Source: Candidatus Rokuibacteriota bacterium
GTDB lineage: Bacteria; Methylomirabilota; Methylomirabilia; Rokubacteriales; CSP1-6
DNA: 64,000 nt
Assembly: GCA_005887895.1 (NCBI GenBank)
Contig: VBPC01000173.1
Span: 3,006 to 67,005, forward strand
Direction of reading: 5' to 3'
Part shown: positions 784 to 16,037 of the stretch, piece by piece
Position numbering within the stretch: position 1 is the first letter of the stretch
Layout: the number at the start of each line of letters is the position of its first letter
The notes under the pieces: generated by a model
Databases searched by the model: none
What the model saw: the letters and a program-made list of their open reading frames with translations, nothing else
Told to the model about the DNA's origin: nothing
Translations under genes and position numbers: made by a program

Positions 784-2574
784 ATGAGCATCGTGACCGC
801 CGCGCGCCGGAGCGCGTACGCGGGTGTCCTGCTGGCCGCCGTCCTGACGCTCGTTTTCCTCGCCCTCCCGGCCGAGGCCCAGCAGGCCGCCGCCAGGGAG
901 CCCGCCTACCGGGCGTTCCCCCTGCTCGGCTCACGGCTGGCCGTGTGGGCCGTCGCGCAGCTGCACCTCAACTTCGCCGCGTTCATCCTCGGCGTGCCGA
1001 TCTTCGCGGTGATCATCGAGATCATCGGCTGGCGCACGCGTGACGCCCGCTACGACTGGCTGTCGCATGAGTTCGTGAAGCTGACGTTCGCGGCGTTCTC
1101 CACGACGGCGCTGCTCGGCGCGTTCCTGCTCTTCCTCTTCGTCGGCTACTACCCGAAGTTCTGGACCTACATGTCCTCTATCTTCTTCCCGACGTACTGG
1201 GTCTACGCCCTGCTGTTCTTCGCCGAGACGTTCACCGTCTACCTCTGGTACTACGGCTGGGACTGGCTGTCGGGCTCCCGCAAGTGGATCCACGTCAGCC
1301 TGGGCGTGCTGTCGAACCTCTTCGGCACCGCCATCCTCGTGGTCGCCAACTCGTGGGTCACCTTCATGATGTCGCCCTCGGGCATCGACGACTCGGGCGC
1401 GCTCAAGGGCGGCGTGTGGGCGGCCATCCACAACCCCACCTGGATCCCGATCAACATCCACCGGCTGATCGCCAACATCGTGTTCGGGGGCACCATCGCG
1501 GGGGCGTACGCGGCATTCCGCTTCCTTTCCGCCAAGACGGACGAAGAGCGGGCGCGGTACGACTGGATGGGCTACATCGGCAATTTCGTCGCGCTGTCGG
1601 CCTTCATCGTGCTGCCGTTCGCCGGCTACTACCTGGGCCGGGAGATCTACGCGTTCAACCAGACGATGGGCATCACGATGATGGGCGGCTTCATGTCGTG
1701 GCTGTGGATCATCCAGGCCATTCTCATCGGCATCCTCTTCCTCGGCTCGAACTACTACCTCTGGCTCGGCATGGAGCGCATCCCGGGCGCCGAGCGCTAT
1801 CGCAAGTACGTCCCGCCGATGCTCATCATCCTCACCGTCGGGTTCATGGTGTGGGCGACGCCGCGCTCGATGGTCGTCACCCTGGACGAGGCGCGGGCCA
1901 TGGGCGGCACCCACCATCCACTCCTCGGCTTCTTCGGCGTGATGTCGGCCAAGAACACGGTCGTGAACCTCATGATCCTCACGACGTTCCTCTCCTACAT
2001 CCTCTACCGCCGCGCGAACCGGATCTCGACGCGGTCGTGGGTGCGCACCGGGATGGCGATCCAGTGGGCGGCCTTCGCTGTGGCCGCCGTCGTCGTGGTC
2101 TTCTACGGCGTCTACGGCTACTTCGTGGAGTCGATCGTGCGCATCGGCTTCTCGGTCTACCAGGTGGTGGCGGTGCTGGCCGCCATCGTGGTGGTCATGG
2201 CCATCGACGTGCCGCTGTTCAAGGGCGCGCGCTCGACCGGCACCATCCGCTGGGGCACCATCGCGCCCCACTCGCAGTACGTGCTCATTCTCCTGGCCGT
2301 CACCTTCACGTGGCTGATGGGCCTCATGGGCTTCGCGCGCTCCGGCATCCGGCAGCACTGGCACGTGTACGGCGTCCTGCGGGACACCTCGGTGGACGCG
2401 GCGACGCCCGCCCTCGGGTACGCGGCCAACGTGATCACGTCGGTGACGCTCGTGTTCTTCGCGCTCGTCATGTTCATCTTCTGGATCGGCGGCCTGGGCG
2501 AGAAGGGCAAGGAGACGGCGCACGGGCACGCGCCGGCCCCGGTGCTGGCCGGCGGCAGCGACCAGGACGTCTAG
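784..2574 (+). CDS. Cytochrome bd-type quinol oxidase subunit I (CydA) family homologue with an extra N-terminal signal/TM segment; no cydB follows
   Basis: The start at the ATG at 784 (MSIVTAARRSAYAGVLLAAVLTLVFLALPAEA) is inferred. The segment AQLHLNFAAFILGVPIF...GYYPKFWTYM...FFAETFTVYLWYYGWDWLSGSRKWIHVSLGVLSNLFGTAILVVANSWVTFMMSP aligns by eye with CydA TM1-TM4. The putative haem-ligand His in TM1, a Glu in the FFAETF motif and the His in INIHRLIANIVFGG are conserved. Confidence 0.7.
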   Translation: MSIVTAARRSAYAGVLLAAVLTLVFLALPAEAQQAAAREPAYRAFPLLGSRLAVWAVAQLHLNFAAFILGVPIFAVIIEIIGWRTRDARYDWLSHEFVKLTFAAFSTTALLGAFLLFLFVGYYPKFWTYMSSIFFPTYWVYALLFFAETFTVYLWYYGWDWLSGSRKWIHVSLGVLSNLFGTAILVVANSWVTFMMSPSGIDDSGALKGGVWAAIHNPTWIPINIHRLIANIVFGGTIAGAYAAFRFLSAKTDEERARYDWMGYIGNFVALSAFIVLPFAGYYLGREIYAFNQTMGITMMGGFMSWLWIIQAILIGILFLGSNYYLWLGMERIPGAERYRKYVPPMLIILTVGFMVWATPRSMVVTLDEARAMGGTHHPLLGFFGVMSAKNTVVNLMILTTFLSYILYRRANRISTRSWVRTGMAIQWAAFAVAAVVVVFYGVYGYFVESIVRIGFSVYQVVAVLAAIVVVMAIDVPLFKGARSTGTIRWGTIAPHSQYVLILLAVTFTWLMGLMGFARSGIRQHWHVYGVLRDTSVDAATPALGYAANVITSVTLVFFALVMFIFWIGGLGEKGKETAHGHAPAPVLAGGSDQDV

Positions 2575-2575
2575 G

Positions 2576-3373
2576 ATGCACGTGCCCGTCGGCGTGAAGG
2601 TCGGCCTCTTCGCCGTCGCCGTGATGGGCAGCTACTCCTACTTCGCCAACTCGATCCCGCAGATCGAGTCCAAGCCGCCGCAAGAGCTGTCGCTGGAAGG
2701 CGGCAACGTCACGCCGGCCCAGCTCGTGAAAGCCGGCGAGGAGATCTTCCACACCAAGGGCACCTGCGAGATCTGCCACCGCATCGGCCAGCCGGGCACG
2801 CGGGCGCCCGACCTGGCCGGCGCCGGCGGGCGCGCCGCCAAGCGGAAGCCCGGCATGAGCGCCAAGGCCTACCTCATCGAGTCGCTGCTGCAGCCGCAGG
2901 CCTACGTCGTCGAGGGCTACCCGCCGATCATGCCGGCCGTGGACAAGCCGCCGATCGCGCTCAATCGCTCCGAAGTGTGGGCGCTGACCGCGTTCCTCGA
3001 GTCGCTCGGCGGCACCGTCGACGTGACGCTGAACGACATCCCGGCCAGCGTCGGCGCGGCGGCGGCCGGCGGCGGGGCGGCGGAGTTCAAGATTCCGGGC
3101 GATCCTCAGGCCGGCGCCCAGGTGTTCCAGGGCAAGGGCACCTGCATCGCGTGCCACAAGGCGGGCAAGATCGGCGCCTCGCCGGTCGGTCCCGACCTCT
3201 CGCAGATCGCCAAGATCCAGACGCCCGACTACATCATGGGGAAGATCCTGAATCCGGCCGGCATGGGCACAGTGGCCGGCTTTCCCAAGGGTGTCATGCC
3301 CCAGGACTTCGGCACGCGGCTGACCTCGAAGGAGTACGTCGATCTCGTCTCCTTCCTGCTCACCCTGAAATGA
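2576..3373 (+). CDS. Dihaem c-type cytochrome
   Basis: There are two CxxCH motifs (CEICH, CIACH), each followed by a distal Met-containing segment, and an N-terminal hydrophobic anchor. The gene begins 1 nt after the upstream stop. Confidence 0.8.
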   Translation: MHVPVGVKVGLFAVAVMGSYSYFANSIPQIESKPPQELSLEGGNVTPAQLVKAGEEIFHTKGTCEICHRIGQPGTRAPDLAGAGGRAAKRKPGMSAKAYLIESLLQPQAYVVEGYPPIMPAVDKPPIALNRSEVWALTAFLESLGGTVDVTLNDIPASVGAAAAGGGAAEFKIPGDPQAGAQVFQGKGTCIACHKAGKIGASPVGPDLSQIAKIQTPDYIMGKILNPAGMGTVAGFPKGVMPQDFGTRLTSKEYVDLVSFLLTLK

Positions 3374-3377
3374 GCCG

Positions 3378-4142
3378 ATGAGATTCCTCCGCTCGCGCTT
3401 CCTGCAGGCCGTCGCGATCTTCGTGCTGGCGTTCGTCGTCCTGCGCTTCGGGATCCGGCCGCCGGCGCCGTGGAGCGTCCTGTCGCTCTACATGTTCATC
3501 ATCACGCTGGCGCTCCTCATCTTCGTCTCATCCGATCGCGACTCGTGGCGCGACTTCGTGCGGCCGATCTGGCTGACGCTGACCGACCCGCGCTACCGCG
3601 GGCTGCGTTCGGTCATCGTCGTGCTGGTGCCGCTGCTGTTCGGCTACTACGCCTACACCCAGGCGGCGGCCAAGCCCCAGGGGCCGCCCGAGCTGCGCGC
3701 GGTGCACCCGGCGCCGCCCGCCTCGATCCAGTTCCGCGGCAAGGAGATCAACATCTCCGGTGTGGAGAACCCGCTGCGCAAGGACGCGGCGGCGTTCGGC
3801 AAGCACGTGGCGGCCGGCCACGACACCTACATCCGCAATTGCGTCTACTGCCACGGCGACAACCTCGACGGCAAGGGCCACTTCGCCTACGGCTTCAACC
3901 CGCCGCCGGCGAACTTCCAGGATCCCGGCACCATCGCGATGCTGCAGGAGGCCTACCTCTTCTGGCGAATCGCCAAGGGCGGCCCGGGGCTGCCGAAGGA
4001 ATCGACGCCGTGGAACTCGGTGATGCCGGCCTGGGAGGAGCGTCTCACGGAGGAGCAGATCTGGCAGGTGATCATGTTCCTGTACGATTTCACCGGCCAG
4101 CAGCCGCGCCGTTGGGAAGCGGGAGAGCATGCCTCCCACTAG
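3378..4142 (+). CDS. Membrane-anchored mono-haem class I cytochrome c
   Basis: Two N-terminal TM helices are followed by a single CVYCH haem-binding motif and a downstream Met region (NSVMPAW). Confidence 0.75.
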   Translation: MRFLRSRFLQAVAIFVLAFVVLRFGIRPPAPWSVLSLYMFIITLALLIFVSSDRDSWRDFVRPIWLTLTDPRYRGLRSVIVVLVPLLFGYYAYTQAAAKPQGPPELRAVHPAPPASIQFRGKEINISGVENPLRKDAAAFGKHVAAGHDTYIRNCVYCHGDNLDGKGHFAYGFNPPPANFQDPGTIAMLQEAYLFWRIAKGGPGLPKESTPWNSVMPAWEERLTEEQIWQVIMFLYDFTGQQPRRWEAGEHASH

Positions 4143-4158
4143 GTGGCGGGCGCCGATA

Positions 4159-5733
4159 ATGGCCCATCTGCGTCGTTGCCTTCTCGCTCCTCCCTGCGGC
4201 GTGGCCGGGCCACGCCGCAGTCGTCGCTCGTCGGCGCCTAGCATCTGGACCATTCTCGGCGCCCTACCTCGACCCGGGCTGGCACAGCTGATTTTCTGCG
4301 CGAGTGTTGCGGCCTCGCTGGCGCTCGCCGCGGACGTCGGTAATGCGTTCGCGCAAGCTGGGGATGCGAATGCGGGGAAGGCGGTTTACGAGAAGAAGTG
4401 TGCGGGGTGTCATGGTCAGAACGGCGACGGGAAGGGGCCGGCGGCGGAGCTGCTGGTGCCGGCGCCGCGGGATTTCACGCGGGGGTTGTACAAGATCCGG
4501 ACGACGGCGAGCAAGGCGCCGTCGGACCGGGACCTGTTCAAGATCATCACGGACGGCATGCCCGGGACCTCGATGCCGTCGTGGGCGGTTCTCCCGGACA
4601 AGGACCGCTGGAATCTCGTGGCATACCTGAAGACCCTGGCGCCGGAGGCGTTCAAGGAGGCGCCCAAGAAGCTCGAGCTGCCGAAGGAGGTCGCCTCCTC
4701 GGAGGCGTCGATCAAGCGCGGCAAGGAGATGTTCGAGGCGATCGAGTGCCACAAGTGCCACGGCACCGACGGGCGCGCCGATGGGCCGTCGCGGCCTGAG
4801 CTCAAGGACGAGTGGGGCCATCCGATCGCGCCGGCCAACCTCACCAAGCGCTGGACCTTCCGGGGCGGGCCGGGACGGACCGAGATCGCCACCCGGCTGG
4901 CCGCCGGCGTCCTCGGCACGCCGATGCCGACCTTCATCGACAGCGTCGAGAAGCCGGAGGACATCTGGCACCTCGCGAACTATCTCGCCTCGCTGGGCCC
5001 CGAGCGCCCGAGCTACGCCACCCTGATCACGGTCACCGCCGTCCGCGGCGACATCCCCGACGATCCCAACGCCGAGTTCTGGAAGAAGCTGACGCCGAGC
5101 GCCATCCCGCTGATGGGCCAAATCATCCAGGATCCGCGTAACTTCAATCCGTCGGTGGATCTCGTCGCCGTCCGAGCTGCCTACAACGAGCGGGACGTCG
5201 TGTTCCACCTGACGTGGGACGACCCCAGCGAGTCGAAGGGCGACGGCAAGCAGACGTTCGCCGACGCGATCTCGCTCCAGTTCCCGCCGCAGATCACCGC
5301 GTCGATCGAGCGGCCCTATTTCCTGATGGGCGACGCCAACGAAGGCGTGTACCTGTTGCGCTGGGAGCAAGGCAAGGGCGTCGGCGAGGCGACCGCCAAC
5401 GGGCCGACGAAGATCGCACCGATCGCGGGCGGCGAGGCGGGCGGCAAGGCGGTGTACGACCACGGCCAGTACCGGCTGGTGATGCGGCGCCCGCTGGCCG
5501 CCACCGGCGAGGCGCGGCCGACGTTCCGGCCGGTCGTGTTCACGCCGGTGGCGATCCAGGCCTGGGACGGCGGCGCCGGGGAGACCGGCACCAGGATGTC
5601 GCTGACGTCATGGTACTATCTGCGGCTGGAGGAACCGCAGTCGAACCGACGCTTCGTCATTCCTCCCGTCGTGGCAATCCTCACACTGGCAGCCATGGTC
5701 CTCGTCGTGCGCGCGGCGAATCGCGTCCGATGA
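4159..5733 (+). CDS. Dihaem cytochrome c fused to an EB_dh-like (DMSO-reductase gamma / ethylbenzene dehydrogenase gamma type) haem-b domain, with a C-terminal TM anchor
   Basis: The N-terminal half carries CAGCH and CHKCH. The C-terminal half (HLTWDDPSESKGDGKQTFADAISLQFPP...YFLMGDANEGVYLLRW...) resembles the Met/Lys-ligated haem-b EB_dh fold. A C-terminal hydrophobic helix (VIPPVVAILTLAAMVLVV) follows. The start is uncertain: ATG 4129, ATG 4159 or GTG 4201 are all possible. Confidence 0.6.
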   Translation: MAHLRRCLLAPPCGVAGPRRSRRSSAPSIWTILGALPRPGLAQLIFCASVAASLALAADVGNAFAQAGDANAGKAVYEKKCAGCHGQNGDGKGPAAELLVPAPRDFTRGLYKIRTTASKAPSDRDLFKIITDGMPGTSMPSWAVLPDKDRWNLVAYLKTLAPEAFKEAPKKLELPKEVASSEASIKRGKEMFEAIECHKCHGTDGRADGPSRPELKDEWGHPIAPANLTKRWTFRGGPGRTEIATRLAAGVLGTPMPTFIDSVEKPEDIWHLANYLASLGPERPSYATLITVTAVRGDIPDDPNAEFWKKLTPSAIPLMGQIIQDPRNFNPSVDLVAVRAAYNERDVVFHLTWDDPSESKGDGKQTFADAISLQFPPQITASIERPYFLMGDANEGVYLLRWEQGKGVGEATANGPTKIAPIAGGEAGGKAVYDHGQYRLVMRRPLAATGEARPTFRPVVFTPVAIQAWDGGAGETGTRMSLTSWYYLRLEEPQSNRRFVIPPVVAILTLAAMVLVVRAANRVR

Positions 5734-5789: not shown

Positions 5790-6479
5790 ATGCGGAAGGT
5801 AGCGACGGCAGGCAGCGTGGCCGCGCTCGTCATCGGCGCGGCGATGTGGTGGGCAGCCTCGGTGGACGCGCAGGGCGGCGGCACCATCGAGGCTGACGTG
5901 AAGTACAACGGCGCGCCCAAGGTCGAGAAGCTCAAGGTCAACAAGGACACCGAGAAGTGCGGCACCGAGACGACGATCGAGCACGTGGTGGTGGGCTCCA
6001 ACAAGGGCCTCGCCAACGCGGTGGTCTCGGTTCCCGACGCCAAGGGGGCCACCAAGGCCAAGGGCGCGATCGACCAGCACGGCTGCCGGTTCGTGCCCCA
6101 CGTGGTCGTGATGCAGCCCGGCGAGATCGAGATCAAGAACTCCGACGACATCCTGCACAACATCCACACGTACTCGACGGCCAACCCGTCCATCAACAAG
6201 GCCCAGCCGAAGTTCAAGAAGGTGATGACGGAGAAGCTCGAGAAGCCGGAGTTCGTGAAAGTCACCTGCGACGTGCACAGCTGGATGCTCGGCTGGGTGG
6301 CGGTGGTGCCGGGCCTGGCCGCCGCGACCGACAACAACGGCGTCGCCAAGATCGAGAACGTGCCGGCCGGCAAGCACAAGGTCGAGGTGTGGCACGAGAC
6401 GCTGGGCAAGCAGGAGAAGGACGTCGACGTCAAGGCCGGGCAGGTGACCAAGGTCAGCTTCGAGCTGAAGGGCAAGTGA
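5790..6479 (+). CDS. Periplasmic cupredoxin-like (type-1 copper) protein with a C-terminal beta-sandwich domain
   Basis: An AGGAGG ribosome-binding site lies 7 nt upstream of the ATG, and a signal peptide follows. The putative Cu ligands are His in KNSDDILHNIH and Cys/His/Met in CDVHSWM (C-x2-H-x2-M). The C-terminus is CarboxypepD_reg-like (GVAKIENVPAGKHKVEVWHE). It is a paralogue of the gene at 13177-13926. Confidence 0.6.
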   Translation: MRKVATAGSVAALVIGAAMWWAASVDAQGGGTIEADVKYNGAPKVEKLKVNKDTEKCGTETTIEHVVVGSNKGLANAVVSVPDAKGATKAKGAIDQHGCRFVPHVVVMQPGEIEIKNSDDILHNIHTYSTANPSINKAQPKFKKVMTEKLEKPEFVKVTCDVHSWMLGWVAVVPGLAAATDNNGVAKIENVPAGKHKVEVWHETLGKQEKDVDVKAGQVTKVSFELKGK

Positions 6480-6512: not shown

Positions 6513-7176
6513 ATGCTTGACTGGTGGCTGCCTGAAAACGTCTCGACCTACGGGCGGGACATCGACTGGTTGTTCCACCTCATCTACTACATCACCGGGA
6601 TCACCGCGATCCTCGTGTTCGGGGCCATGATCATCTTCCTGGTGATGTACCGCGACCGTCCCGGTCGCCGGGCCCGCTACACCCACGGCAACACCACGCT
6701 GGAGATCGTCTGGACGATCGTGCCGGCGCTGATCCTCGTGATCCTGACGCTGCTGAGCGTCCCGGCGTGGTCGAAGATCAAGATGACCATGCCGGAGACG
6801 GACTTCATCGTGCAAGTGACCGCGAAGCAGTTCAACTGGCAAATCACCTATCCCGGCCCCGACGGCAAGTTCGGCACCGACGACGACAAGACGCTGCTCG
6901 ACGAGATGCACGTGGCAGGACGCGGTGCCGGGCCGCCAGATCGTGCAGTGGTTCGAGGCGACCAAGCCCGGCAAGTACGAGCTGCCGTGCGCCGAGCTGT
7001 GCGGCTTCGGCCACTCCGGCATGCGCGGCTGGATCTACGTGCACACGCCCGACGAGTACGCGAAGTGGGCGGCGGAGAACCTGACGGCCCAGGCGGCCGG
7101 CGGCGAGCAGAAGCAGGCGGACGAGGCCAAGCCGGCGGCGCCCGCCGCCAAGACGGGAGGAAAGGCCAAGCGATGA
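6513..7176 (+). pseudogene. coxB: Cytochrome c oxidase subunit II (CoxB) disrupted by an internal deletion of about 27 codons plus a frameshift
   Basis: Frame 0 (6513 to about 6911) encodes the two TM helices and ...VQVTAKQFNWQITYPGP...DDDKTLLDEMHV. The conserved continuation (PVG..V....TS.DViHsF.vP...vK) is absent. Frame +2 resumes at about 6917 with QDAVPGRQIVQWFEATKPGKYELPCAELCGFGHSGMRGWIYVHTPDEY, which contains the CuA ligands, and runs to the stop at 7176. Confidence 0.7.
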
Positions 7177-8927
7177 GCGCCACCACCGCGACGGCTCACG
7201 CGCACGTTGCACACGAGCATCACGAGCTGGGCTTCGTCCGGACGTACATCTTCTCGACCGATCACAAGATGATCGCCCGCCAGTTCCTGTTCCTGGGGCT
7301 GACGATGATGATCCTCGGCGGCCTGCTGGCGCTGATCGTGCGCTGGCAGCTGGCGTGGCCGGAGACGCCGATCCCCGGCATGGCGCACATCTTCACCGAG
7401 ACCTCGCCGCCCGGGATCATCCAGCCGCCGCAGTACAACATGGCGTTCACCATGCACGCCACGATCATGATCTTCTTCGTGATCATGCCCATCCTGGCCG
7501 GCGCCTTCGGCAACTTCTGCATCCCGCTCATGATCGGCGCCCGCGACATGGCCTTCCCGTTCCTGAACATGCTGTCGTTCTGGGTGACGGGCACGGCCGG
7601 GGTCATCATGCTGTCAGGCTTCTTCGTCGAGGGCGGCCACGCCGCCGCCGGCTGGACGTCCTACGCGCCGTTGTCGGCGGTGCCGGAGTACACCGGCGTC
7701 AACTGGGGCCAGAACATCTGGTGCATCAGCCTGTTCGTCATGGGCGTCGGCTCCATGATGGGCTCCATCAACTACATCACCACGATCATCAACATGCGGG
7801 CGCCCGGCATGCGCCTGTTCCGCATGCCGCTCGTCGTGTGGTCGCTGTTCATCACGGCCATCCTCCTGCTGCTGGCGCTGCCGGTGCTGACCTCCGGTGT
7901 GGCCATGCTGCTGTTCGACCGCACGCTCGGCACCTCGTGGTTCAAGCCGTCGGGCGGCGGCGAGCCGCTGCTGTGGCAGCACCTGTTCTGGTACTTCGGC
8001 CATCCCGAGGTCTACATCCTCATCCTGCCGGCCATGGGCATCGCCTCGGAGATCCTGCCGGTGTTCTCCCGCAAGCCGATCTTCGGCTACCACGCCATGG
8101 CGTTCTCGATGATCGGCATCGCGTTCCTGTCGTGGATCGTCTACGGCCACCACATGTTCGTGAGCGGGATGAACCCCCGGCTCGGCATGGCGTTCACGGT
8201 GAGCACGATGATCATCGCGGTGCCCTCGGCCATCAAGACCTTCAACTGGCTGGGCACCCTGTGGGGCGGCCGCATCCAGTTCAAGGTGCCGATGCTGTTC
8301 GCGCTCGGCTTCGTGTCGATGTTCGTGATCGGCGGGCTCAGCGGCATCTTCATGGCCAGCACCCCGGTCGACATCTACATCCAGGACACCTACTTCATCG
8401 TGGCCCACATCCACTACGTCGTGTTCGGCGGCTCGATCTTCGGCGCCTTCGCGGCGATCTACTTCTGGTTCCCGAAGATGTTCGGGCGGATGCTGAACCC
8501 GGTCCTCGGCCATCTCCACTTCTGGGGCACCCTGATCTTCTTCAACTGGGTGTTCTTCCCGATGCACATCATCGGCGTCGGTGGCCAGATGCGGCGGATC
8601 TACAACCCGATGCAGTACGAGTTCCTCCAGCACCAGCAGCACTGGAACGTGTTCATGACCTACGGCGCGCTGTGCCTGGGCGCCGTCCAGCTGCTGTTCG
8701 TGGTCAACTTCTTCTGGTCGCTGTTCGCCGGCCGCAAGGCGCCGATGAACCCGTGGAACTCCACGACCCTCGAATGGACGGCGCCCTCGCCGCCGCCGCA
8801 TCTCAACTGGGGCGCGACCGTGCCCACCGTCTACCGGGGGCCGTACGAGTACAGCGATCCCGAGGCGGCCGAGGACTTCCTGCCGCAGAACCAGCCGCCG
8901 GCCCGGGTCGGCGCGCGGGCTCACTGA
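7173..8927 (+). CDS. coxA: Cytochrome c oxidase subunit I (A-family haem-copper oxidase)
   Basis: The ATG overlaps the coxB stop (ATGA). The protein is 584 aa with 12 TM helices and the hallmark motifs [22 protein letters not shown] and HHMF...GGLSGI...HYV. The tail extends out to ...PARVGARAH. Confidence 0.92.
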   Translation: [584 protein letters not shown]

Positions 8928-8941
8928 CGGAGACGCCCGGG

Positions 8942-9820
8942 GTGAGGCTGGCGCATCGCCTGGCCGTGCTGACGGCCGCCGCGACCGGCGTGCTCATCGT
9001 CTTCGGCGGGCTCGTGACGAACACGGGCGCCGCCCTGGCGGTGCCCGACTGGCCGACGACGTTCGGCCACAACATGTTCCTGTTCCCACCCTCGCAGATG
9101 GTGGGCGGCGTGTTCTACGAGCACAGCCACCGCCTGCTCGGCGCCCTCGTGGGCGGACTGACGGTGGGGCTGGCGGCGATCCTCTGGCGGCGCGGCGGCC
9201 GCTGGCGCGCGCTCGCCGTCGCCGCCGCGCTCCTCGTCGTCCTCCAGGGCGTCGTCGGAGGGCTGCGGGTGGTGCTGCAGACGGAGGCGCTCGCCATGAT
9301 CCATGGTCCGCTGGCGCAGGCGTTCTTCGCGCTGACCGTCACCATCGCGCTGCTCACGTCGCCCCGGATGGCCGCGCCGGCGCTCACGGTGGATGCGACC
9401 ACGCGCCGGCTGACGCTGACCGCCGCGGCGACGGTGTATCTACAGATCGTGTTCGGCGCGCTCCTCACTCACGCCGGTTATCTCGGCCTCCACCTGGCCG
9501 GCGCGCTGGCCGTCTTCGTCCTGGTGCCGATCGTCACCGCGCGCCTGCGGCATGGCGGCGACCCGGTGGCCGCGCCGGCGGCCCGCGCCCTCCTGGCTCT
9601 GCTGGGGCTGCAGCTGCTGCTCGGCGTCGGCAGCTATCTGGTGCGCTTCTCGGCGATCTGGATCCCGGGCGGACAGCTCACGATGCTGGCGGCGCCCGTC
9701 GCGCATCGGCTGGCCGCCGGCCTCGTCCTCGCGGCCGTCGTGGTGCTGGCCGTCCGCGTGCTGGCCTCCGCGCGGCCGGCGGTGCTCGACGTTCCCGGCG
9801 TGCTCGGAGTCGTGTCATGA
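8942..9820 (+). CDS. ctaA: Haem A synthase (CtaA/COX15 family, short type-2 form)
   Basis: The GTG start is in frame with the stop at 9820. The protein has eight TM helices, the motifs DWPTTFGHNMF and YEHSHRLLG, and His in downstream helices. Confidence 0.7.
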   Translation: MRLAHRLAVLTAAATGVLIVFGGLVTNTGAALAVPDWPTTFGHNMFLFPPSQMVGGVFYEHSHRLLGALVGGLTVGLAAILWRRGGRWRALAVAAALLVVLQGVVGGLRVVLQTEALAMIHGPLAQAFFALTVTIALLTSPRMAAPALTVDATTRRLTLTAAATVYLQIVFGALLTHAGYLGLHLAGALAVFVLVPIVTARLRHGGDPVAAPAARALLALLGLQLLLGVGSYLVRFSAIWIPGGQLTMLAAPVAHRLAAGLVLAAVVVLAVRVLASARPAVLDVPGVLGVVS

Positions 9821-9938
9821 AGCCCCGCGCGTCTGGAACAGGCCACCTGCGGTTCACGCCGGCCGCGCGGACCCCGCTACGATTGAAGCCCCGCGCGCCT
9901 GGAACAGGCCACCTGCGGTTCACGCCGGCCGCGCGGAC
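9818..9938 (+). repeat. Tandem direct duplication (2 x 55 nt with one mismatch, 11-nt spacer) that exactly fills the ctaA-ctaB intergenic region
   Basis: Copy 1 at 9818-9872 is tgaagccccgcgcgTctggaacaggccacctgcggttcacgccggccgcgcggac. The spacer is cccgctacgat. Copy 2 at 9884-9938 is identical except for a single T-to-C change. Copy 1 starts at the ctaA stop codon and copy 2 ends at the ctaB ATG. Each unit contains the inverted pair ccgcgcg / cgcgcgg. Confidence 0.85.
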
Positions 9939-10841
9939 ATGACGCCGCGGGGCGAGGTCGTCGTGGCGGCGCTTGCGCGCGAGCGCGGACGCGTGGCCGG
10001 CGACCTCCTGTCGCTGACGAAGCCGCGCGTCGTCCTGATGGTGCTCGTGACGACGGTGGTCGGCTACTACGTCGGTCTGGCCGGCGCGCCCGACTACGCG
10101 CGCCTGGCGGCGCTCCTGCTCGGCACGATGCTGGCGGCCGGCGGCACGCTGGCGCTGAACCAGTACTGGGAGCGTGACGTCGACGCCCTCATGGAGCGCA
10201 CGCGCACGCGCCCGCTGCCCGAGGGACGGCTGGCCCCGCTGGAGGCGCTGCTGTTCGGCGGGGGGCTCACGGCGGCGGGGCTCGGCGTGCTGGCCCTCGG
10301 CGTCGGCTGGCTGGCCGCGCTGGTGGTGGCGGCCACGTTCGTGCTCTACATCTTCGCGTACACGCCGCTCAAGGTGCGGACGCCGTTCTGCACGCTGGTC
10401 GGCGCCGTGCCGGGTGCGCTGCCGCCGGTGGCCGGCTGGGCCGCCGCGCGCGACGACGTCGGGGTGGGCGCCTGGGTGCTGTTCGGCATCCTGTTCCTCT
10501 GGCAACTGCCCCACACGCTGGCCATCGGGCGTCTCTACCGTGACGACTATGCCCGGGCCGGCGTGCGGCTGCTGCCGGTGATCGACGCCCAGGGGCGGGC
10601 CACCGAGCGACAGATCCTCAGCGGCTGCCTGGGGCTGCTGGCGGTGAGCCTGCTGCCCACGCTGATCGGCCTGGCCGGCGGCGTCTACTTCGCGGGCGCC
10701 CTCGTCCTCGGCGCCGGGTTCGTCACGCTCGGCGCCCAGCAGGCGCTGGCGCCGTCGGCGTCGCGCGTGCGACGCGTGCTGCTGGCCTCGCTGCTCTACC
10801 TGCCGGCGCTGCTGGCGCTGCTGGCCTTCGACAAAGCATGA
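9939..10841 (+). CDS. ctaB: Protohaem IX farnesyltransferase (haem O synthase)
   Basis: The protein is 301 aa and belongs to the UbiA family, with motifs LTKPRVV, NQYWERDVDALMERTRTRPLP and LFLWQLPHTLAIG. Confidence 0.85.
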   Translation: MTPRGEVVVAALARERGRVAGDLLSLTKPRVVLMVLVTTVVGYYVGLAGAPDYARLAALLLGTMLAAGGTLALNQYWERDVDALMERTRTRPLPEGRLAPLEALLFGGGLTAAGLGVLALGVGWLAALVVAATFVLYIFAYTPLKVRTPFCTLVGAVPGALPPVAGWAAARDDVGVGAWVLFGILFLWQLPHTLAIGRLYRDDYARAGVRLLPVIDAQGRATERQILSGCLGLLAVSLLPTLIGLAGGVYFAGALVLGAGFVTLGAQQALAPSASRVRRVLLASLLYLPALLALLAFDKA

Positions 10842-10966
10842 GCATGAGCGCCGTCATGACCGACCCCGGCGACCTCGGCCAGCGCAACCGGCTCGTCCGC
10901 CGCATCCTGCTCGGCATCGTCGCCGTGCTGATCGTCGCCTCGTTCATGGTGGGGATTCGCTGGTGA
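10838..10966 (+). CDS. Small single-TM protein (42 aa) wedged between ctaB and cox3
   Basis: Its ATG overlaps the ctaB stop (ATGA). The sequence is MSMSAVMTDPGDLGQRNRLVRRILLGIVAVLIVASFMVGIRW. It is in the same frame as, and directly upstream of, the next gene, and is below the ORF-track size cut-off. Its coding status is unproven. Confidence 0.3.
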   Translation: MSMSAVMTDPGDLGQRNRLVRRILLGIVAVLIVASFMVGIRW

Positions 10967-11038
10967 CCGCCGCCGACGCCGCCCACCGGCGGCGGCGACG
11001 ACGACCGCAACGGCTCGTGGGGCCGGCCGCTCGACAAC

Positions 11039-11575
11039 GTGCGGCTGGCGATGATGTTCCTGATCGCGGGCGAGGTGATGTTCTTCGCCGCCCTCGTCTC
11101 CGGCTTCTTCGTCCTGCGGCTGGCGGCGCCGCTGTGGCCGCCGCCGCTGCAGCCGCGGCTGCCCGTGTTCGTGACCGGGCTCAACACGCTCGTCTTGCTC
11201 GGCTCGAGCATCGCCATGCTCGGCGCGACGCGCGCCGTGGGGCGCGGGGAGCGGTCGCGGGCGCTGCGCCGCCTGGCCCTCACGGCCGCGCTCGGCATCC
11301 TGTTCCTCGCCGTGCAGGGCTACGAATGGACGCGGCTGATCGAGTACGGCCTCACCACCTCGTCCGGCGCCTACGGCGGCACGTTCTACACACTGATCGG
11401 CGCGCACGCCGCCCACGTGCTGGGCGCGCTGATCTGGCTGGCCGTCACCCTGACGCTGGCCGCCCGCGGGCGTTTCCTCGACGGCCGCACCGCCGTGCTG
11501 CGAGCGTGCGCGATCTACTGGCACTTCGTCGTGGCCCTGTGGCCGGTTCTCTACGTGACGGTCTACCTGATATGA
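11039..11575 (+). CDS. Cytochrome c oxidase subunit III family protein (short, copy 1)
   Basis: A GTG start gives a 178-aa protein with motifs YEWTRLIEYGL, GTFYTLIGAHAAHVLGALIWL and YWHFVVALWPVLY. Confidence 0.7.
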   Translation: MRLAMMFLIAGEVMFFAALVSGFFVLRLAAPLWPPPLQPRLPVFVTGLNTLVLLGSSIAMLGATRAVGRGERSRALRRLALTAALGILFLAVQGYEWTRLIEYGLTTSSGAYGGTFYTLIGAHAAHVLGALIWLAVTLTLAARGRFLDGRTAVLRACAIYWHFVVALWPVLYVTVYLI

Positions 11576-11787
11576 CGCACGCGTTCGGACGAGTCCTGGC
11601 CTGTGCTTCCTGCATGTCGACCGCGTACGGCGACCAGTCGTTCACCTGGGCGTACGGCGCGCTCATCGTGGCTCCCTTCCTGGTCGCCATCGCGCTCGGC
11701 GCCGTGCTCGCCTGGAGCGCGGGGTATCGGCTGCGGTGGTGCCGCGTGACGCCGATGGCGACGCCGATCAACGAGGAGGTTTCATGA
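11572..11787 (+). CDS. Small membrane protein with an N-terminal CxxC motif (71 aa)
   Basis: The ATG overlaps the cox3 stop and the stop overlaps the next ATG (ATGA at both ends). The sequence MTHAFGRVLACASCMSTAYGDQSF... contains a hydrophobic helix (ALIVAPFLVAIALGAVLAW). Confidence 0.4.
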   Translation: MTHAFGRVLACASCMSTAYGDQSFTWAYGALIVAPFLVAIALGAVLAWSAGYRLRWCRVTPMATPINEEVS

Positions 11788-12398
11788 GTGCTGCAACCCC
11801 GCACGCAGCGGTGGAGCGCGCCGAGACCCCGCTCACGCCGGAGAGCTGGGGCAAGCTCGGGATGTGGATCTTCCTGGCCGGCGACGCCGTCGGCTTCGGC
11901 ACGCTGCTGGCGTCCTACGGCGGCATGCGCGCGACCAGCGCCGACTGGCCGAATCCCTACGCGGTGCTCGGCATCAACCTGACCGCCGCCATGACGTTCC
12001 TGCTGATCTGCTCGAGCGTCACGATGGTGAAGGCGCTCGAGTGGCTGGGCCGCGGCGACCGAGCCAAGGCCAAGATGTTCCTGTTCTTCACCGCGCTGGG
12101 CGGGGCCATCTTCGTCGGCTGCCAGGCCTATGAATGGACGCACCTGATCGAGCGTGGCCTGCACATCAACGGCAATCCCTGGGGGGCCGCGCTGTTCGGC
12201 ACCTCGTTCTTCATCGTCACCGGCTTCCACGGCCTCCACGTGACGGGCGGCGTCATCTACCTGCTGGCGATGATCGGCGTCGTGTCCCGCCGGCCCGATC
12301 CGGCGGCCAGCTACAACGCGGTCGAGATCGCCGGCCTCTACTGGCACTTCGTCGACCTCGTGTGGATCATGGTGTTCACCTTCATGTACCTCCTCTAA
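11784..12398 (+). CDS. Cytochrome c oxidase subunit III (copy 2)
   Basis: The protein is 205 aa with motifs AYEWTHLIERGL, FFIVTGFHGLHVTGGVIYL and YWHFVDLVWIMVF. Confidence 0.85.
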   Translation: MSAATPHAAVERAETPLTPESWGKLGMWIFLAGDAVGFGTLLASYGGMRATSADWPNPYAVLGINLTAAMTFLLICSSVTMVKALEWLGRGDRAKAKMFLFFTALGGAIFVGCQAYEWTHLIERGLHINGNPWGAALFGTSFFIVTGFHGLHVTGGVIYLLAMIGVVSRRPDPAASYNAVEIAGLYWHFVDLVWIMVFTFMYLL

Positions 12399-12411
12399 GG
12401 AGGCGAGATCG

Positions 12412-12750
12412 ATGGCAGCCGAGCACAAGCATCCCAACTACATGGCGATCTTCTACCTGCTGGCGGTGCTGACGGTCGGCGAGATCGCCGTCGTGTTCCT
12501 GCCGCACTACATCGGGATCAGCAAGTTCGCCGTCGGCGTGTTCCTGTGCGCCTTCGCGATCGTCAAGGCGGCGCTGGTCGCCATGTACTTCATGCACCTG
12601 AAGTTCGAGGCGCGCACGCTGGGCCTCATCGCCCTCACGCCGCTGACGATCGCCACGCTGCTGGTGTTCGTCATCCTTCCCGACGCTTCGTTCGTGGATC
12701 ACAAGACGGCGAACGTCAAGCCGGCGGCCGAAGAGCCGGCCAAGCACTGA
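12412..12750 (+). CDS. Prokaryotic cytochrome c oxidase subunit IV (caa3-type CoxD/CtaF family)
   Basis: The sequence HKHPNYMAIFYLLAVLTVGEIAVVFLP...AIVKAALVAMYFMHLKFE is the signature of the small three-helix subunit IV family. Confidence 0.75.
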   Translation: MAAEHKHPNYMAIFYLLAVLTVGEIAVVFLPHYIGISKFAVGVFLCAFAIVKAALVAMYFMHLKFEARTLGLIALTPLTIATLLVFVILPDASFVDHKTANVKPAAEEPAKH

Positions 12751-13176: not shown

Positions 13177-13926
13177 GTGCTGAGAATCGTGGCGATGGTC
13201 GTGCTCGCGATGGCGCTGGCGACGCCGGCGCCGGCCTACGAGGTCGTCACCGTGCCCGACGGCGGCACCCTGGCCGGCGTGGTGAGGTTCGCCGGCCCAC
13301 CGCCGAAGCTCGACCCGCTGCCGGTGAACAAGAACCGCGACGTGTGCGGCGACGAGAAGGCCACGGAGGCGCTCATCGTCGGGCCCGACCACGGCGTGCG
13401 TGGCAGCGTCATCCTCGTGGAGGGCGTCACCCGCGGCAAGGCGCCGGCCGGGGAGGTCCTGCTCGACAACCACAAGTGCCTGTTCGTCTCCCACGTCAGC
13501 GCGACGACGACGGGCGAGCGCGCGCGGGTGAAGAACTCCGACGGCATCCTGCACAACACGCACGGCTTCCTGGCCCGGACGACGGTCTTCAACCTCGCGC
13601 TGCCGAACCGCGACCAGATGATCGACATCACCCGGCGGCTCGGCAAGCCGGGGGTGGTGCGCGTCGTGTGCGACGCGCACACCCACATGTTCGGCTGGAT
13701 CGTCGTGCACGACAGCCCCTACTTCGCCGTGAGCGACGACCACGGCGCGTTCCGCATCGAGGGCATCCCGCCCGGCAGCTACAAGGTCACGCTCTGGCAC
13801 GAGGGCTACCGGCCCCGCGGCCTCGACAAGGACGGGCGCGCGCTGTACGACGAGCCCCGCACCATCACCCGCGACGTCACGATCGCGCCGACGGCGACGG
13901 CGACGGTCGACTTCGAGCTCAAATAG
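13177..13926 (+). CDS. Periplasmic cupredoxin-like (type-1 copper) protein, paralogue of 5790-6479
   Basis: A signal peptide is followed by VKNSDGILHNTHGF and VVCDAHTHMFGW (C-x2-H-x2-M). The C-terminal beta-sandwich (FRIEGIPPGSYKVTLWHE...VDFELK) has the same architecture and conserved blocks as the upstream paralogue. Confidence 0.6.
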   Translation: MLRIVAMVVLAMALATPAPAYEVVTVPDGGTLAGVVRFAGPPPKLDPLPVNKNRDVCGDEKATEALIVGPDHGVRGSVILVEGVTRGKAPAGEVLLDNHKCLFVSHVSATTTGERARVKNSDGILHNTHGFLARTTVFNLALPNRDQMIDITRRLGKPGVVRVVCDAHTHMFGWIVVHDSPYFAVSDDHGAFRIEGIPPGSYKVTLWHEGYRPRGLDKDGRALYDEPRTITRDVTIAPTATATVDFELK

Positions 13927-15854: not shown

Positions 15855-16002
15855 GGTTCGTGGGCGGCGGCGGGGGCGGGGTCCGGCGACCACGAGGTAG
15901 GCGGCGATGGTTGGGATGCGTGATTCCCTCGTGCCGGGTGGCTCCGTAAGCGGTTGCGGGAAACGGGTCGGCGGACCCCGCCCCCGCCGCCGCCCACGAA
16001 CC
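15855..16002. repeat. 36-nt inverted repeat (35/36 match) with a 76-nt spacer, forming a large potential stem-loop between the USP/PCP_red gene and the radical-SAM gene
   Basis: Arm 1 at 15855-15890 is ggttcgtgggcggcggcgggggcggggtccggcgac. Arm 2 at 15967-16002 is gtcggcggaccccgcccccgccgccgcccacgaacc, the reverse complement with one G/C mismatch. The loop contains a nested cacgagg / cctcgtg inverted pair. Confidence 0.85.
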
Positions 16003-16037
16003 TCCGCGCTCGCACATCTCTCCTTCGGAAGGATCCC

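Follow-up and report, generated by a model that had tools for sequence, protein, structure and literature searches.

The gene at positions 4129 to 5733 (+ strand) of the 64,000-nucleotide stretch of DNA analyzed here (the window) encodes an alt_NxrC-type protein, in which a signal peptide is followed by a dihaem cytochrome c, by an EB_dh domain and, at the C-terminus, by a transmembrane anchor. We consider it likely that this protein (the focal protein) belongs, as redox subunit, to a bd-like membrane complex encoded by four genes (positions 784 to 5733); it would face the periplasm, be anchored at its C-terminus, and carry two haems of the c type and probably one of the b type. Its gene adjoins an aa3 oxidase operon but is probably not part of it.

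The gene is real, its reading frame running without interruption on the + strand from ATG 4129 (534 aa) or ATG 4159 (524 aa) to the stop codon at 5731-5733. We favor ATG 4129 as the likelier start because the N-terminal peptide MPPTRWRA is conserved in the relatives P0004 and P0011; a start there overlaps the stop of the upstream monohaem cytochrome c gene by 14 nt. A hydrophobic signal peptide ending AFA/QA is placed at 4276-4350 (+) by hydropathy, by the translation and by homologues that start near this position. The motif RRSRRSS was considered as a Tat signal and rejected, since it is off consensus and since c-type cytochromes are exported unfolded via Sec.

An earlier note on this DNA had proposed a fusion of a dihaem cytochrome c, an EB_dh-like domain and a C-terminal transmembrane anchor, and this architecture is borne out by Pfam, AF2, Foldseek and hydropathy. 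Pfam recognizes two cytochrome c domains (PF13442, 1.4e-22; PF00034, 4.6e-22), and the dihaem module, which is Kustc0457-like, spans 4372-4998 (+), with its haem-binding motifs at 4399-4413 (CAGCH) and 4747-4761 (CHKCH). Candidate distal Met ligands are M134/M139 and M256 (524-aa numbering), and the Cys, His and Met of the module are invariant or nearly so in 233 aligned sequences (232 relatives and the query). Residues 72-280 of the focal protein align with residues 10-219 of Kustc0457 (6H5L chain B), which is its full length, and across these N-terminal 210 residues the two are homologous (E 3e-46, 37% identity, rmsd 2.2 Å; Foldseek TM score 0.86). Kustc0457 occurs as a separate soluble protein in complex with the octahaem HAO-like Kustc0458, whereas the module of the focal protein is instead fused to an EB_dh domain and an anchor.

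The EB_dh part is a beta-sandwich of the EbdC/NxrC-like, DOMON/CBM9 type at 5014-5643 (+), and we regard it as a putative haem-b domain. The HMM search that had been proposed for it returns PF09459 at 2e-16, with 61 bits against a cut-off of 33. With respect to the type II DMSO-reductase gamma subunits, the resemblance extends along the whole of the NCBIfam model TIGR03477 ('DMSO reductase type II haem b subunit'; positions 6-206 of 206 aligned) but stays under its curated cut-off (98 bits against 169.85). The fold itself came out as anticipated, since the AF2 model (pLDDT 83.4, pTM 0.78) contains an EB_dh-type beta-sandwich that matches EbdC (2ivf_C; TM score 0.79, E 3.7e-15) and Kuenenia NxrC (7b04_C; TM score 0.61, E 4.9e-15). 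In contrast to the focal protein, EbdC and NxrC are soluble, have neither c-haem domains nor a transmembrane anchor, and are encoded together with molybdoenzyme alpha and beta subunits. The anchor lies at 5653-5709 (+; hydropathy 2.73), is overlapped by a helix at model residues 456-482, is followed by the basic tail RAANRVR, and is kept in most full-length members of the family.

Far from being the unusual fusion that it was first taken for, the focal protein is a further, biochemically uncharacterised member of the known and widespread alt_NxrC family. We find 1180 close homologues of the protein and 925 family clusters (50% identity) at E<=1e-30 in many phyla; full-length members sharing 33-48% identity number more than 100. 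Among the named sources are Nitrospirota, Nitrospinota, Alpha- and Gammaproteobacteria, Gemmatimonadota and Sulfurivermis fontis, and individual members are fused to COX3, SCO1/SenC or FixO. The name alt_NxrC is used for Nitrospira, Nitrospina and anammox bacteria; the same family appears as the 'periplasmic cytochrome b' of TO_1 in Manganitrophus and as the EbdC-like subunit of OR-N2 operons (Murali et al.).

Three genes lie upstream on the same strand, a bd-like gene and two cytochrome c genes, all of which the earlier note had left out. The membrane core of the module is a cytochrome bd-like CydA homologue of the OR-N2 type (784-2574, +; 596 aa from ATG 784, with the frame open from 634), with about 13-14 hydrophobic or transmembrane segments. 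Pfam assigns it to Cyt_bd_oxida_I at 1.5e-18, covering only profile positions 2-241 of 418, and its PDB matches to CydA are weak. The OR-N2 signature, defined by His at the H19, H126 and H186 positions, Tyr at E99 and Glu at E107 (Murali et al., Table S6), is present as H111/Y191/E198/H220/H276, with spacings of 87/22/56 compared with 91/23/56 in the OR-N2 reference of the same table. The second gene (2576-3373, +) encodes a dihaem cytochrome c with two CxxCH motifs and a Pfam cytochrome c match; it is a homologue of Kuenenia Kustd1711 (7zs0/7zs1/7zs2_A, E about 1e-34), a high-potential cytochrome encoded in the nxr cluster (PMC11791136). The third (3378-4142, +) encodes a membrane-anchored monohaem cytochrome c with one CxxCH motif, again recognized by Pfam as cytochrome c, and with three predicted N-terminal transmembrane segments (residues 4-22, 33-51 and 79-97). 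A sister clade, represented by 111 sequences some 745 aa long, has this monohaem cytochrome fused to the N-terminus of the focal protein.

The four genes are tightly packed, with gaps and overlaps of -14 to +4 nt, and no terminator-like sites were found within 784-5733. The bd-like gene, the dihaem cytochrome c and the monohaem cytochrome c precede the focal gene in 57 of 57 evaluable Methylomirabilota species loci, a set gathered with the single focal protein as query that reached only Methylomirabilota-type genomes. Loci from other phyla were retrieved one by one, apart from this set, and the same gene order is seen in all of those examined (L002, L004, L006, L007, L008, L009, L010, L091 and L092), with the module present in two copies at each of L007, L010 and L091.

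This arrangement is in line with what has been described for Nitrospira. The alt_NxrC_2 of N. moscoviensis (NITMOv2_3640), recorded as '1 SP, 1 TMH, diheme cyt c', resembles the focal protein in its signal peptide, its two haem-c motifs, its DMSO-reductase-like haem-b domain and its single transmembrane helix; it is conserved in anammox bacteria and Nitrospina, and its gene clusters with two membrane cytochromes c and bd-like_3. As in the window, that cluster combines a bd-like protein of 14 TM segments with a dihaem cytochrome c and a monohaem membrane cytochrome c. Judged by their descriptions, further equivalents of NITMOv2_3640 are the 'alternative NxrC' of Nitrospina gracilis and the corresponding proteins of the Kuenenia nxr cluster, of TO_1 and of OR-N2. 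TO_1 of Manganitrophus consists of a bd-like protein, two cytochromes c and the periplasmic cytochrome b, and is expressed at the 98th percentile. Unlike the Nitrospira cluster, the module of the window belongs to a host of Methylomirabilota/Rokubacteria type, has no NXR that we could find in the window, and leads directly into a cupredoxin gene and then an A-type cox operon; the focal protein (483-534 aa) is also shorter than the 66.8-kDa Nitrospira protein.

On these likenesses, the bd-like complex of the window corresponds to OR-N2 of Murali et al., to 'bd-like_3 / alt_NxrC_2' of Nitrospira and to 'TO_1' of Manganitrophus. The OR-N and TO names assume O2 reduction by the membrane subunit, for which quinone exchange is an alternative. 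Bd-like OR-N proteins are described as devoid of the quinol-binding Q-loop, and in the preferred reading the haem chain of the focal protein (c, c, then b) would take the place of that loop, serving on the periplasmic side as the port by which electrons reach or leave the transmembrane haems of the bd-like subunit. Such a port would accept electrons from high-potential periplasmic carriers or give electrons to them, and the carriers here are probably the other two cytochromes c of the operon together with the adjacent amicyanin-like cupredoxin, which may also connect the module to the neighboring aa3 oxidase. To our knowledge, neither a member of the alt_NxrC family nor an OR-N bd-like complex has ever been purified, and O2 reduction, subunit contacts and haem b are inferred here.

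Downstream, between the module and coxB, lies a gene for a secreted protein in which an amicyanin-like cupredoxin is fused to a CarboxypepD_reg (Ig-like) domain (5790-6479, +). Its motif H..C-x2-H-x2-M does not vary among 8 sequences that represent 4 phyla, and its family profile matches amicyanin, blue-copper protein and CuA domains at E about 1e-3 with the ligands aligned. A single-sequence PDB search with this cupredoxin gave no match, and an AF2 model built from the two window paralogues alone was unusable (pLDDT 46.7). The gene directly follows the focal gene in 69 of the 74 loci. Beyond it, the A-type haem-copper oxidase operon (6513-12750, +) comprises coxB, coxA, ctaA, ctaB, two COX3 genes and COX4, as assigned by Pfam and by synteny with the loci L001 and L004. 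Within this operon, coxB (6513-7176, +) is disrupted by an 80-nt frameshifting deletion with its junction between 6914 and 6915, owing to a pseudogene or possibly to an assembly error, and is followed by coxA (7173-8927, +). We found no terminator-like site in the stretch from the module to coxB. In 53 of 58 Methylomirabilota loci and in one Gemmatimonadota locus (L008) the focal gene has CoxA downstream, while at least 10 loci carry the module without cox nearby (L002, L006, L007, L009, L010, L091 and L092, and the NC10-type L072, L079 and L081). The bd-like gene is present in every case. The tight cox linkage within Methylomirabilota is odd for an autonomous second terminal oxidase, and a complex-III-like role would account for it no less well.

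Such a role is the core of the alternative that survives best, one that we hold to be possible though not likely: the bd-like module would act as a reversible quinol:cytochrome c/cupredoxin oxidoreductase, analogous to ACIII, with the focal protein as its periplasmic arm for the exit or entry of electrons and the cupredoxin passing electrons to CuA of the aa3 oxidase. The same possibility was raised by Lucker et al. 2013. It draws on the order module, cupredoxin, cox in the 53 Methylomirabilota loci and L008, on the stretch up to coxB in which we found no terminator-like site, and on the family fusions to COX3, SCO1/SenC and FixO. The module is moreover found beside NXR (in the literature), beside an Aio/Idr-type molybdoenzyme and beside the aa3 oxidase, that is, beside donors as well as acceptors, and one quinone-linked hub would explain these three contexts alike. 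ActA/ActE of ACIII and the dihaem QcrC of bcc-aa3 likewise are membrane-anchored multihaem c proteins that hand electrons on from a membrane complex to a neighboring haem-copper oxidase and whose genes often sit next to cox, and the focal protein has weak structural or sequence matches to 6f0k_E, 6lod_E and 7qhm_C. Compared with ACIII and bcc, however, the module has no membrane-core homology and no FeS subunit, and the resemblance is a functional one drawn from gene context alone. Against quinol chemistry, no quinone site is known and the Q-loop residues are absent according to the literature; the haem ligands H19 and H186 persist together with a channel Glu, as one would expect of an O2-reducing bd-type core; and in L009 a Rieske/cytochrome b complex directly upstream of the module would make a second quinol oxidase redundant.

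With respect to haem b, the earlier note had expected Met and Lys as ligands, and half of this expectation stands. The Met of YFLMGD (Met390, codon 5326-5328) aligns with the ligand Met of EbdC and NxrC, but the position of the Lys is taken by Met480 (codon 5596-5598), preceded by Arg479 (codon 5593-5595; all on the + strand). This assignment comes from a profile of the EB_dh domain that matches 7b04_C (9e-43) and 2ivf_C (1.6e-28), both across the full length, and that equates M390 with EbdC M108 and NxrC M155, and M480 with EbdC K201 and NxrC K305; these are the axial haem-b ligands reported in the literature (M108/K201 in EbdC and M155/K305 in NxrC). With Met at the Lys position and Arg directly before it, Met/Lys ligation is unsupported for the focal protein, and its haem b, if present, is predicted from the sequence to be bis-Met (Met390/Met480). 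A HMMER pairwise alignment that set K305 on R479 scored -1.2 and was overruled by the profile alignment, and a Lys ligand at column 479 was rejected for the focal protein, where the residue is Arg.

Conservation of these positions differs between the orthologues and the wider family. Among the orthologues, M480 is kept in 121 of 122 and M390 in 109 of 122, with Arg at position 390 in 10 of 122; all 13 orthologues that lack M390 carry K479, which possibly compensates in these variants. Across the family, Met occupies column 390 in only 38 of 129 representatives, and some 43% of the representatives have no ligand-competent residue at column 390 or 480. The two columns nevertheless co-vary as Met/Lys, Met/Met and His/His pairs, and His at column 390 is accompanied by His at 480 in 4 of 4 sequences (Fisher P = 1.6e-4, uncorrected for phylogeny). 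Since the canonical ligands are not conserved family-wide, the EB_dh domain may be free of haem in many members. For the focal protein itself we think it rather doubtful that the domain is a structural or docking beta-sandwich without haem, which would reduce the subunit to an anchored dihaem cytochrome c with a spacer, a reading compatible with all the others. The missing Lys ligand, the orthologues with Arg in place of Met390, the family representatives that lack both ligand-type residues, and the fact that the nearest non-haem structural relatives are CBM9 modules would fit it, but the near-constancy of M480 and M390 among the orthologues and the co-variation of the columns as ligand-competent pairs, His/His included, speak for a haem site.

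At the far end of the cox operon we observe a second cupredoxin/CarboxypepD_reg paralogue (13177-13926, +), followed by a Usp-Usp-PCP_red-rubredoxin-like protein (13936-15846, +) and an AhbD/NirJ-like radical-SAM/SPASM protein with a PCP_red domain (15954-17465, +). The Usp-PCP/radical-SAM pair stands beside the module across phyla (L006, L008, L091 and the NC10-type loci), with a Usp-PCP homologue no more than 9 kb from the module in 27 of 28 fully flanked loci. Literature searches for a link of bd-like proteins to NirJ, AhbD or radical SAM found nothing, and searches for Rokubacteria with complex III and for iodate reductase with bd-like proteins gave nothing relevant. A bolder and still less probable proposal takes in this pair: the OR-N2 module might be a third kind of 'complex III', built of the CydA homologue, three membrane-anchored cytochromes (including the EB_dh protein with its bis-Met haem b), the amicyanin-like cupredoxin and a dedicated AhbD/NirJ-like radical-SAM tetrapyrrole enzyme, and acting as a quinone-linked reversible hub, perhaps with a modified haem, and not as a terminal oxidase. 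If this were true, the partner of the hub would vary with the high-potential enzyme available in the host, being the aa3 oxidase in Rokubacteria and Gemmatimonadota, NXR in anammox bacteria and nitrite oxidisers, and an Aio/Idr-type molybdoenzyme in Proteobacteria.

The neighbors of the focal gene are oxidase components, and CoxB has no cytochrome c domain, both as the earlier note had stated. From this one may suppose that the focal protein is the dedicated electron-entry subunit of the aa3 oxidase and stands in for the cytochrome c domain missing from CoxB, and the conserved cox adjacency and the fusion of the representative P0194 to a C-terminal segment of COX3 would agree with it. We judge this improbable, since the bd-like gene always accompanies the focal gene, also at the loci where cox is absent nearby, since a cupredoxin gene intervenes in the large majority of loci and encodes the more usual kind of CuA donor, and since coxB is disrupted in the window while the focal gene is intact. 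The conserved cupredoxin would be a more natural donor to CuA than the focal protein.

No molybdoenzyme was found among the ten long open reading frames screened in the window (28-61 kb), nor in the gene calls of L001, L002, L004, L006, L008, L009 and L010. In proteobacterial relatives the module does adjoin an Aio/Idr-type molybdoenzyme, which tells against the preferred reading, since a partnership with a molybdoenzyme is conceivable elsewhere in the family. That the focal protein is the membrane anchor or gamma subunit of a periplasmic type II DMSO-reductase-family (NXR-like) enzyme encoded elsewhere in the genome, the role originally proposed for 'alternative NxrC' in nitrite oxidisers, is very improbable: the EB_dh fold common to EbdC and NxrC and the proteobacterial neighbor, albeit of the Aio/Idr type, would suit it, but no molybdopterin enzyme appeared in these screens, the family occurs in organisms not known as nitrite oxidisers, such as Sulfurivermis fontis, and in N. 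moscoviensis the alt_NxrC_2 transcript lies 2.5- to 4-fold below NxrABC.

The window supplies context and not a new entity. The module is near-universal in soil Methylomirabilota/Rokubacteria, where a cupredoxin gene and an aa3 oxidase operon are firmly linked to it; the presumed Met/Lys haem-b site is Met/Met here and is missing in many family members; and a radical-SAM gene of the tetrapyrrole type accompanies the module. With these points the alternatives (terminal oxidase versus quinone-linked hub; haem b present versus absent) are more sharply drawn but not settled, and the presence of the module in the cultured sulfur oxidiser Sulfurivermis fontis (L006) makes experiments feasible. The function of OR-N bd-like proteins and their alt_NxrC partners bears on the bioenergetics of nitrite oxidisers, comammox, anammox and Mn(II)-oxidising bacteria, in which these genes are among the most highly expressed.

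The focal protein is encoded on the + strand by an open frame that closes with the stop codon at 5731-5733 and opens at ATG 4129 or at ATG 4159, the start chosen in an earlier note on this DNA. Conservation of the N-terminal peptide MPPTRWRA among homologues suggests that ATG 4129, which overlaps the stop of the upstream gene, is the true start. In the sequence we read a hydrophobic signal segment (ending AFA/QA), two CxxCH motifs (CAGCH, 4399-4413, and CHKCH, 4747-4761) and a C-terminal hydrophobic helix followed by RAANRVR (5653-5709), all on the + strand. Pfam recognizes two cytochrome c domains and, above its cut-off, EB_dh (PF09459; E = 2e-16, 61 versus 33 bits); the NCBIfam profile TIGR03477, "DMSO reductase family type II enzyme, heme b subunit", aligns over positions 6-206 of 206, with a score (98 bits) under the curated 170. 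In an AlphaFold2 model built from 50 homologues (pLDDT 83.4, pTM 0.78), the two cytochrome domains are helical and are accompanied by a beta-sandwich and one terminal helix. Foldseek against the PDB matches the model to Kustc0457 (6h5l_B, TM 0.86), which corresponds to the N-terminal half of the protein, to EbdC (2ivf_C, TM 0.79, E = 3.7e-15) and to NxrC (7b04_C, E = 4.9e-15), with CBM9 modules ranked after. The layout described in the earlier note (dihaem cytochrome c, EB_dh-like domain, C-terminal anchor) is borne out by Pfam, sequence reading, AlphaFold2 and Foldseek alike, and the EB_dh match and EbdC/NxrC fold therefore speak against an unrelated beta-sandwich.

The same note called this fusion unusual, which does not agree with its distribution across many phyla or with its presence in the literature. 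A word-indexed search returned 1180 homologues; the best 120 of these all carry the same three Pfam domains, and their named sources are Methylomirabilota, Rokubacteria or Binatia. Exhaustive HMMER searching (representatives clustered at 50% identity) gave 925 clusters at E<=1e-30, of which over 100 are full-length members with 33-48% identity and mostly with a C-terminal hydrophobic helix, and a profile from distant members finds named proteins of Nitrospirota, Nitrospinota, Nitrosomonadales, Alpha- and Gammaproteobacteria and Longimicrobiales, and of the cultured Sulfurivermis fontis. Nitrospira moscoviensis alt_nxrC_2 has been listed as "1 SP, 1 TMH, diheme cyt. c" (Mundinger et al. 2019), and the TO_1 set of Manganitrophus comprises a bd-like protein, two cytochromes c and a periplasmic cytochrome b, with expression in the 98th percentile (Yu and Leadbetter). 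The focal protein has the architecture and operon of alt_NxrC_2, of the TO_1 cytochrome b and of the EbdC-like subunit of OR-N2, and we assign it to this family with high confidence; it is a further example of a known, uncharacterized kind. EbdC and NxrC share its fold and Met ligand but differ in having another second ligand, no c haems, no anchor and a molybdoenzyme partner. Across the family, the operon's monohaem cytochrome c is fused N-terminally in 111 sequences (P0271 and following) and C-terminally in P0128, and other members are fused to a COX3 C-terminal segment (P0194), SCO1/SenC (P0147) or FixO (P0248), although fusions with a single representative could be gene-calling artefacts.

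Upstream, close-packed and on the same strand, lie genes for a 596-aa Cyt_bd_oxida_I homologue (ATG 784-2574; the Pfam match is confined to the N-terminal 241 positions of the 418-position profile), a dihaem cytochrome c (2576-3373; Pfam, motif reading) and a monohaem cytochrome c (3378-4142; Pfam, hydropathy) that has three predicted TM segments. The bd-like protein has H111, Y191, E198, H220 and H276 (spacings 87/22/56), a signature that matches OR-N2 (H99, Y183, E190, H213, H269; spacings 91/23/56) and not OR-N1, where the Glu is absent (Murali et al.). The dihaem cytochrome is homologous to Kustd1711 (7zs0_A, E about 1e-34), an nxr-cluster cytochrome with haem potentials of about +350 mV (PMC11791136). 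Gene order was compared over 80 species-representative loci (55-82% identity), almost all of them from MAGs labelled Methylomirabilota/Rokubacteria; proteins of the window served as tblastn queries, and evaluable loci as denominators. The three genes stand in order upstream of the focal gene in 57/57 loci. In a sister clade of about 745 aa (48-65% identity), 111 sequences carry the monohaem cytochrome as an N-terminal extension of the focal protein; of two loci inspected, one (L004) has a cox operon and the other (L002) has none. Because of this synteny, the cross-phylum contexts and the monohaem fusion, the bd-like gene and two cytochromes are obligate partners of the focal protein. The earlier note's view that the neighbours are oxidase components holds for the downstream cox genes, but the defining partners lie upstream and had not been considered.

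With respect to the haem-b site, ligand columns were placed with a profile of 28 diverse C-terminal domains, which covers NxrC (E = 9e-43) and EbdC (E = 1.6e-28) from end to end. The NxrC ligands are Met155 and Lys305, "as in EBDH" (Chicano et al.). M155 of 7b04_C and M108 of 2ivf_C align with the Met of YFLMGD (M390 when counted from ATG 4159, codon 5326-5328), as the earlier note proposed, but its Lys ligand finds no counterpart: K305 of NxrC and K201 of EbdC align with M480 (codon 5596-5598), just after R479. Among 122 orthologues, position 390 is M in 109, R in 10 and L in 3, position 479 is R in 62 and K in 60, and position 480 is M in 121; in the 745-aa clade the counts are M 101/111 at 390, K 79, R 19 and Q 9 at 479, and M 72 and F 21 at 480. 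Across 129 distant representatives (P0121-P0270 set), column 390 is Met in only 38, and at column 480 R occurs 44 times, K 23, M 19 and H 13. Soluble members without the TM helix retain NxrC-like FGMGD...NGQK motifs. The columns co-vary: K, M, H or C occupies column 480 in 30/42 representatives with M or H at 390 versus 31/87 of the others (Fisher p = 1.6e-4, without correction for phylogeny), and His480 accompanies His390 in all four sequences that have the latter. From the alignment, we read these columns as indeed the axial ligand positions, which predicts a bis-Met haem b in the window's clade and Met/Lys or His/His in others; the 56/129 representatives with neither column of ligand type may have lost canonical six-coordinate haem b.

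Downstream, a secreted protein (5790-6479, +) precedes coxB, coxA, ctaA, ctaB, two COX3 and COX4 (all +) and a DUF983 gene, and a paralogue lies beyond the cox operon (13177-13926, +); in both, Pfam detects nothing but the CarboxypepD_reg domain at the C-terminus, and the N-terminal half has an H...C-x2-H-x2-M motif. Invariant across eight homologues drawn from four phyla are H132, C169-D-x-H172-x-x-M175, C108 and W210-H211, and the profile of these homologues matches amicyanin (1sf3_A, E = 1e-3), a type-1 blue-copper protein (5fc9_A, 1.1e-3) and a CuA domain (5u7n_A, 5.6e-4), with the His and C-x2-H-x2-M aligned to the amicyanin type-1 copper ligands. Judged from these residues, the paralogues are probably blue-copper electron carriers, and it is plausible that the first carries electrons between module and CuA; its counterpart is the "cupredoxin-like proteins" of the Kuenenia/Nitrospira/Nitrospina cluster. 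The gene directly follows the focal gene in 69/74 loci, and CoxA lies downstream in 53/58; the five cox-free loci (L061, L072, L076, L079, L081) all retain the module, and L072 and L081 carry NC10/Methylomirabilis labels. Linkage of the module to a cupredoxin is conserved, as is, in two phyla, its linkage to the aa3 oxidase; the aa3 operon is a frequent, lineage-specific neighbour. No terminator-like site was found between module and coxB. Relative to L001 and L004, coxB (6513-7176) has an 80-nt deletion (junction 6914/6915) that removes about 24 residues, including the CuA-ligand His of DVIHSF, and shifts the frame, the CuA C-terminal part (CAELCGFGHSGM) continuing in a different frame; this points to a pseudogene or else to a fault in the assembly. 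Ten long ORFs screened at 28-61 kb of the window include no molybdopterin enzyme. At about 49.7-60.7 kb lies an unrelated surface-polysaccharide/nonulosonic-acid-type cluster (ABC exporter, Polysacc_synt_2, DegT aminotransferase, NeuB with SAF, cytidylyltransferase, class-III aminotransferase).

Further along the + strand are a Usp-Usp-PCP_red-rubredoxin-like protein (13936-15846, Pfam) and an AhbD/NirJ-like radical-SAM/SPASM protein ending in a PCP_red domain (15954-17465; 308 bits for AhbD and 302 for NirJ2, both under cut-offs). In three phyla or more this pair occurs with the bd-like module, beside it or past the cox operon (also L006, L008, L091, L002, L070, L072, L079 and L081), which hints at a dedicated tetrapyrrole-modifying step encoded with the module; the literature searched held no link between the pair and bd-like complexes. 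In Sulfurivermis fontis (L006) the pair and SCO1 accompany a cox-free module, and in Longimicrobiales (L008) the pair, module, CarboxypepD_reg gene and COX2/1/3/4/CtaG follow one another. A Nitrospirota locus (L009) combines Rieske, cytochrome b, module, CarboxypepD_reg and a second bd-like gene, and L010 has two modules with a CarboxypepD_reg gene between them. Two tandem modules adjoin an Aio/Idr-type molybdoenzyme in Alphaproteobacteria (L007, L091), and in Nitrosomonadales (L092) module genes adjoin genes for AioA-like (396 bits, over the cut-off of 359) and AioB-like proteins as well as for two dihaem peroxidases. Neighbours in this set (L007 1-943, L091 1-1583, L092 129-5852, also L010 1-2634) comprise an arsenite-oxidase/iodate-reductase-type (AioA-like) molybdoenzyme together with its Rieske subunit, a HEAT-repeat protein and a pair of dihaem peroxidases (CCP_MauG), often with tandem duplication of the module. 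We presume this proteobacterial layout to be similar to published iodate-reduction islands.

The best explanation overall, and in our judgement a reasonably probable one, is that the focal protein serves as the periplasmic electron port of the bd-like complex. With its C-terminal anchor in the membrane and every redox domain periplasmic, it would substitute for the reportedly missing Q-loop and pass electrons from the c haems through the b haem to the transmembrane haems of the core. The core may then exchange electrons with quinone (Lucker and Kartal), and such a quinone-linked hub fits at least as well as an oxidase, given the cox linkage, the COX3, SCO1 and FixO fusions and the adjoining donor and acceptor enzymes of varied kinds. 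It may instead reduce O2, as in the OR-N/TO view, which fits the Rieske/cytochrome b neighbour at L009 and the H19 and H186 ligands kept in the bd-like protein. Least supported is the earlier note's direct entry subunit for CoxBA, because modules occur without cox, a cupredoxin gene separates the two, and the window's own coxB is disrupted.

We found no mention in the literature searched of four features: that module, cupredoxin and aa3 operon stand together almost universally in Methylomirabilota; that the haem-b site is predicted to be bis-Met here and its ligands vary across the family; that AhbD/NirJ-like radical-SAM genes and Usp-PCP_red genes go with the module; and that Aio/Idr-type genes adjoin it in Proteobacteria. 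The fusion itself will not surprise specialists; the gene context is useful for framing experiments, and the name "periplasmic cytochrome b" may be wrong for many alt_NxrC members.
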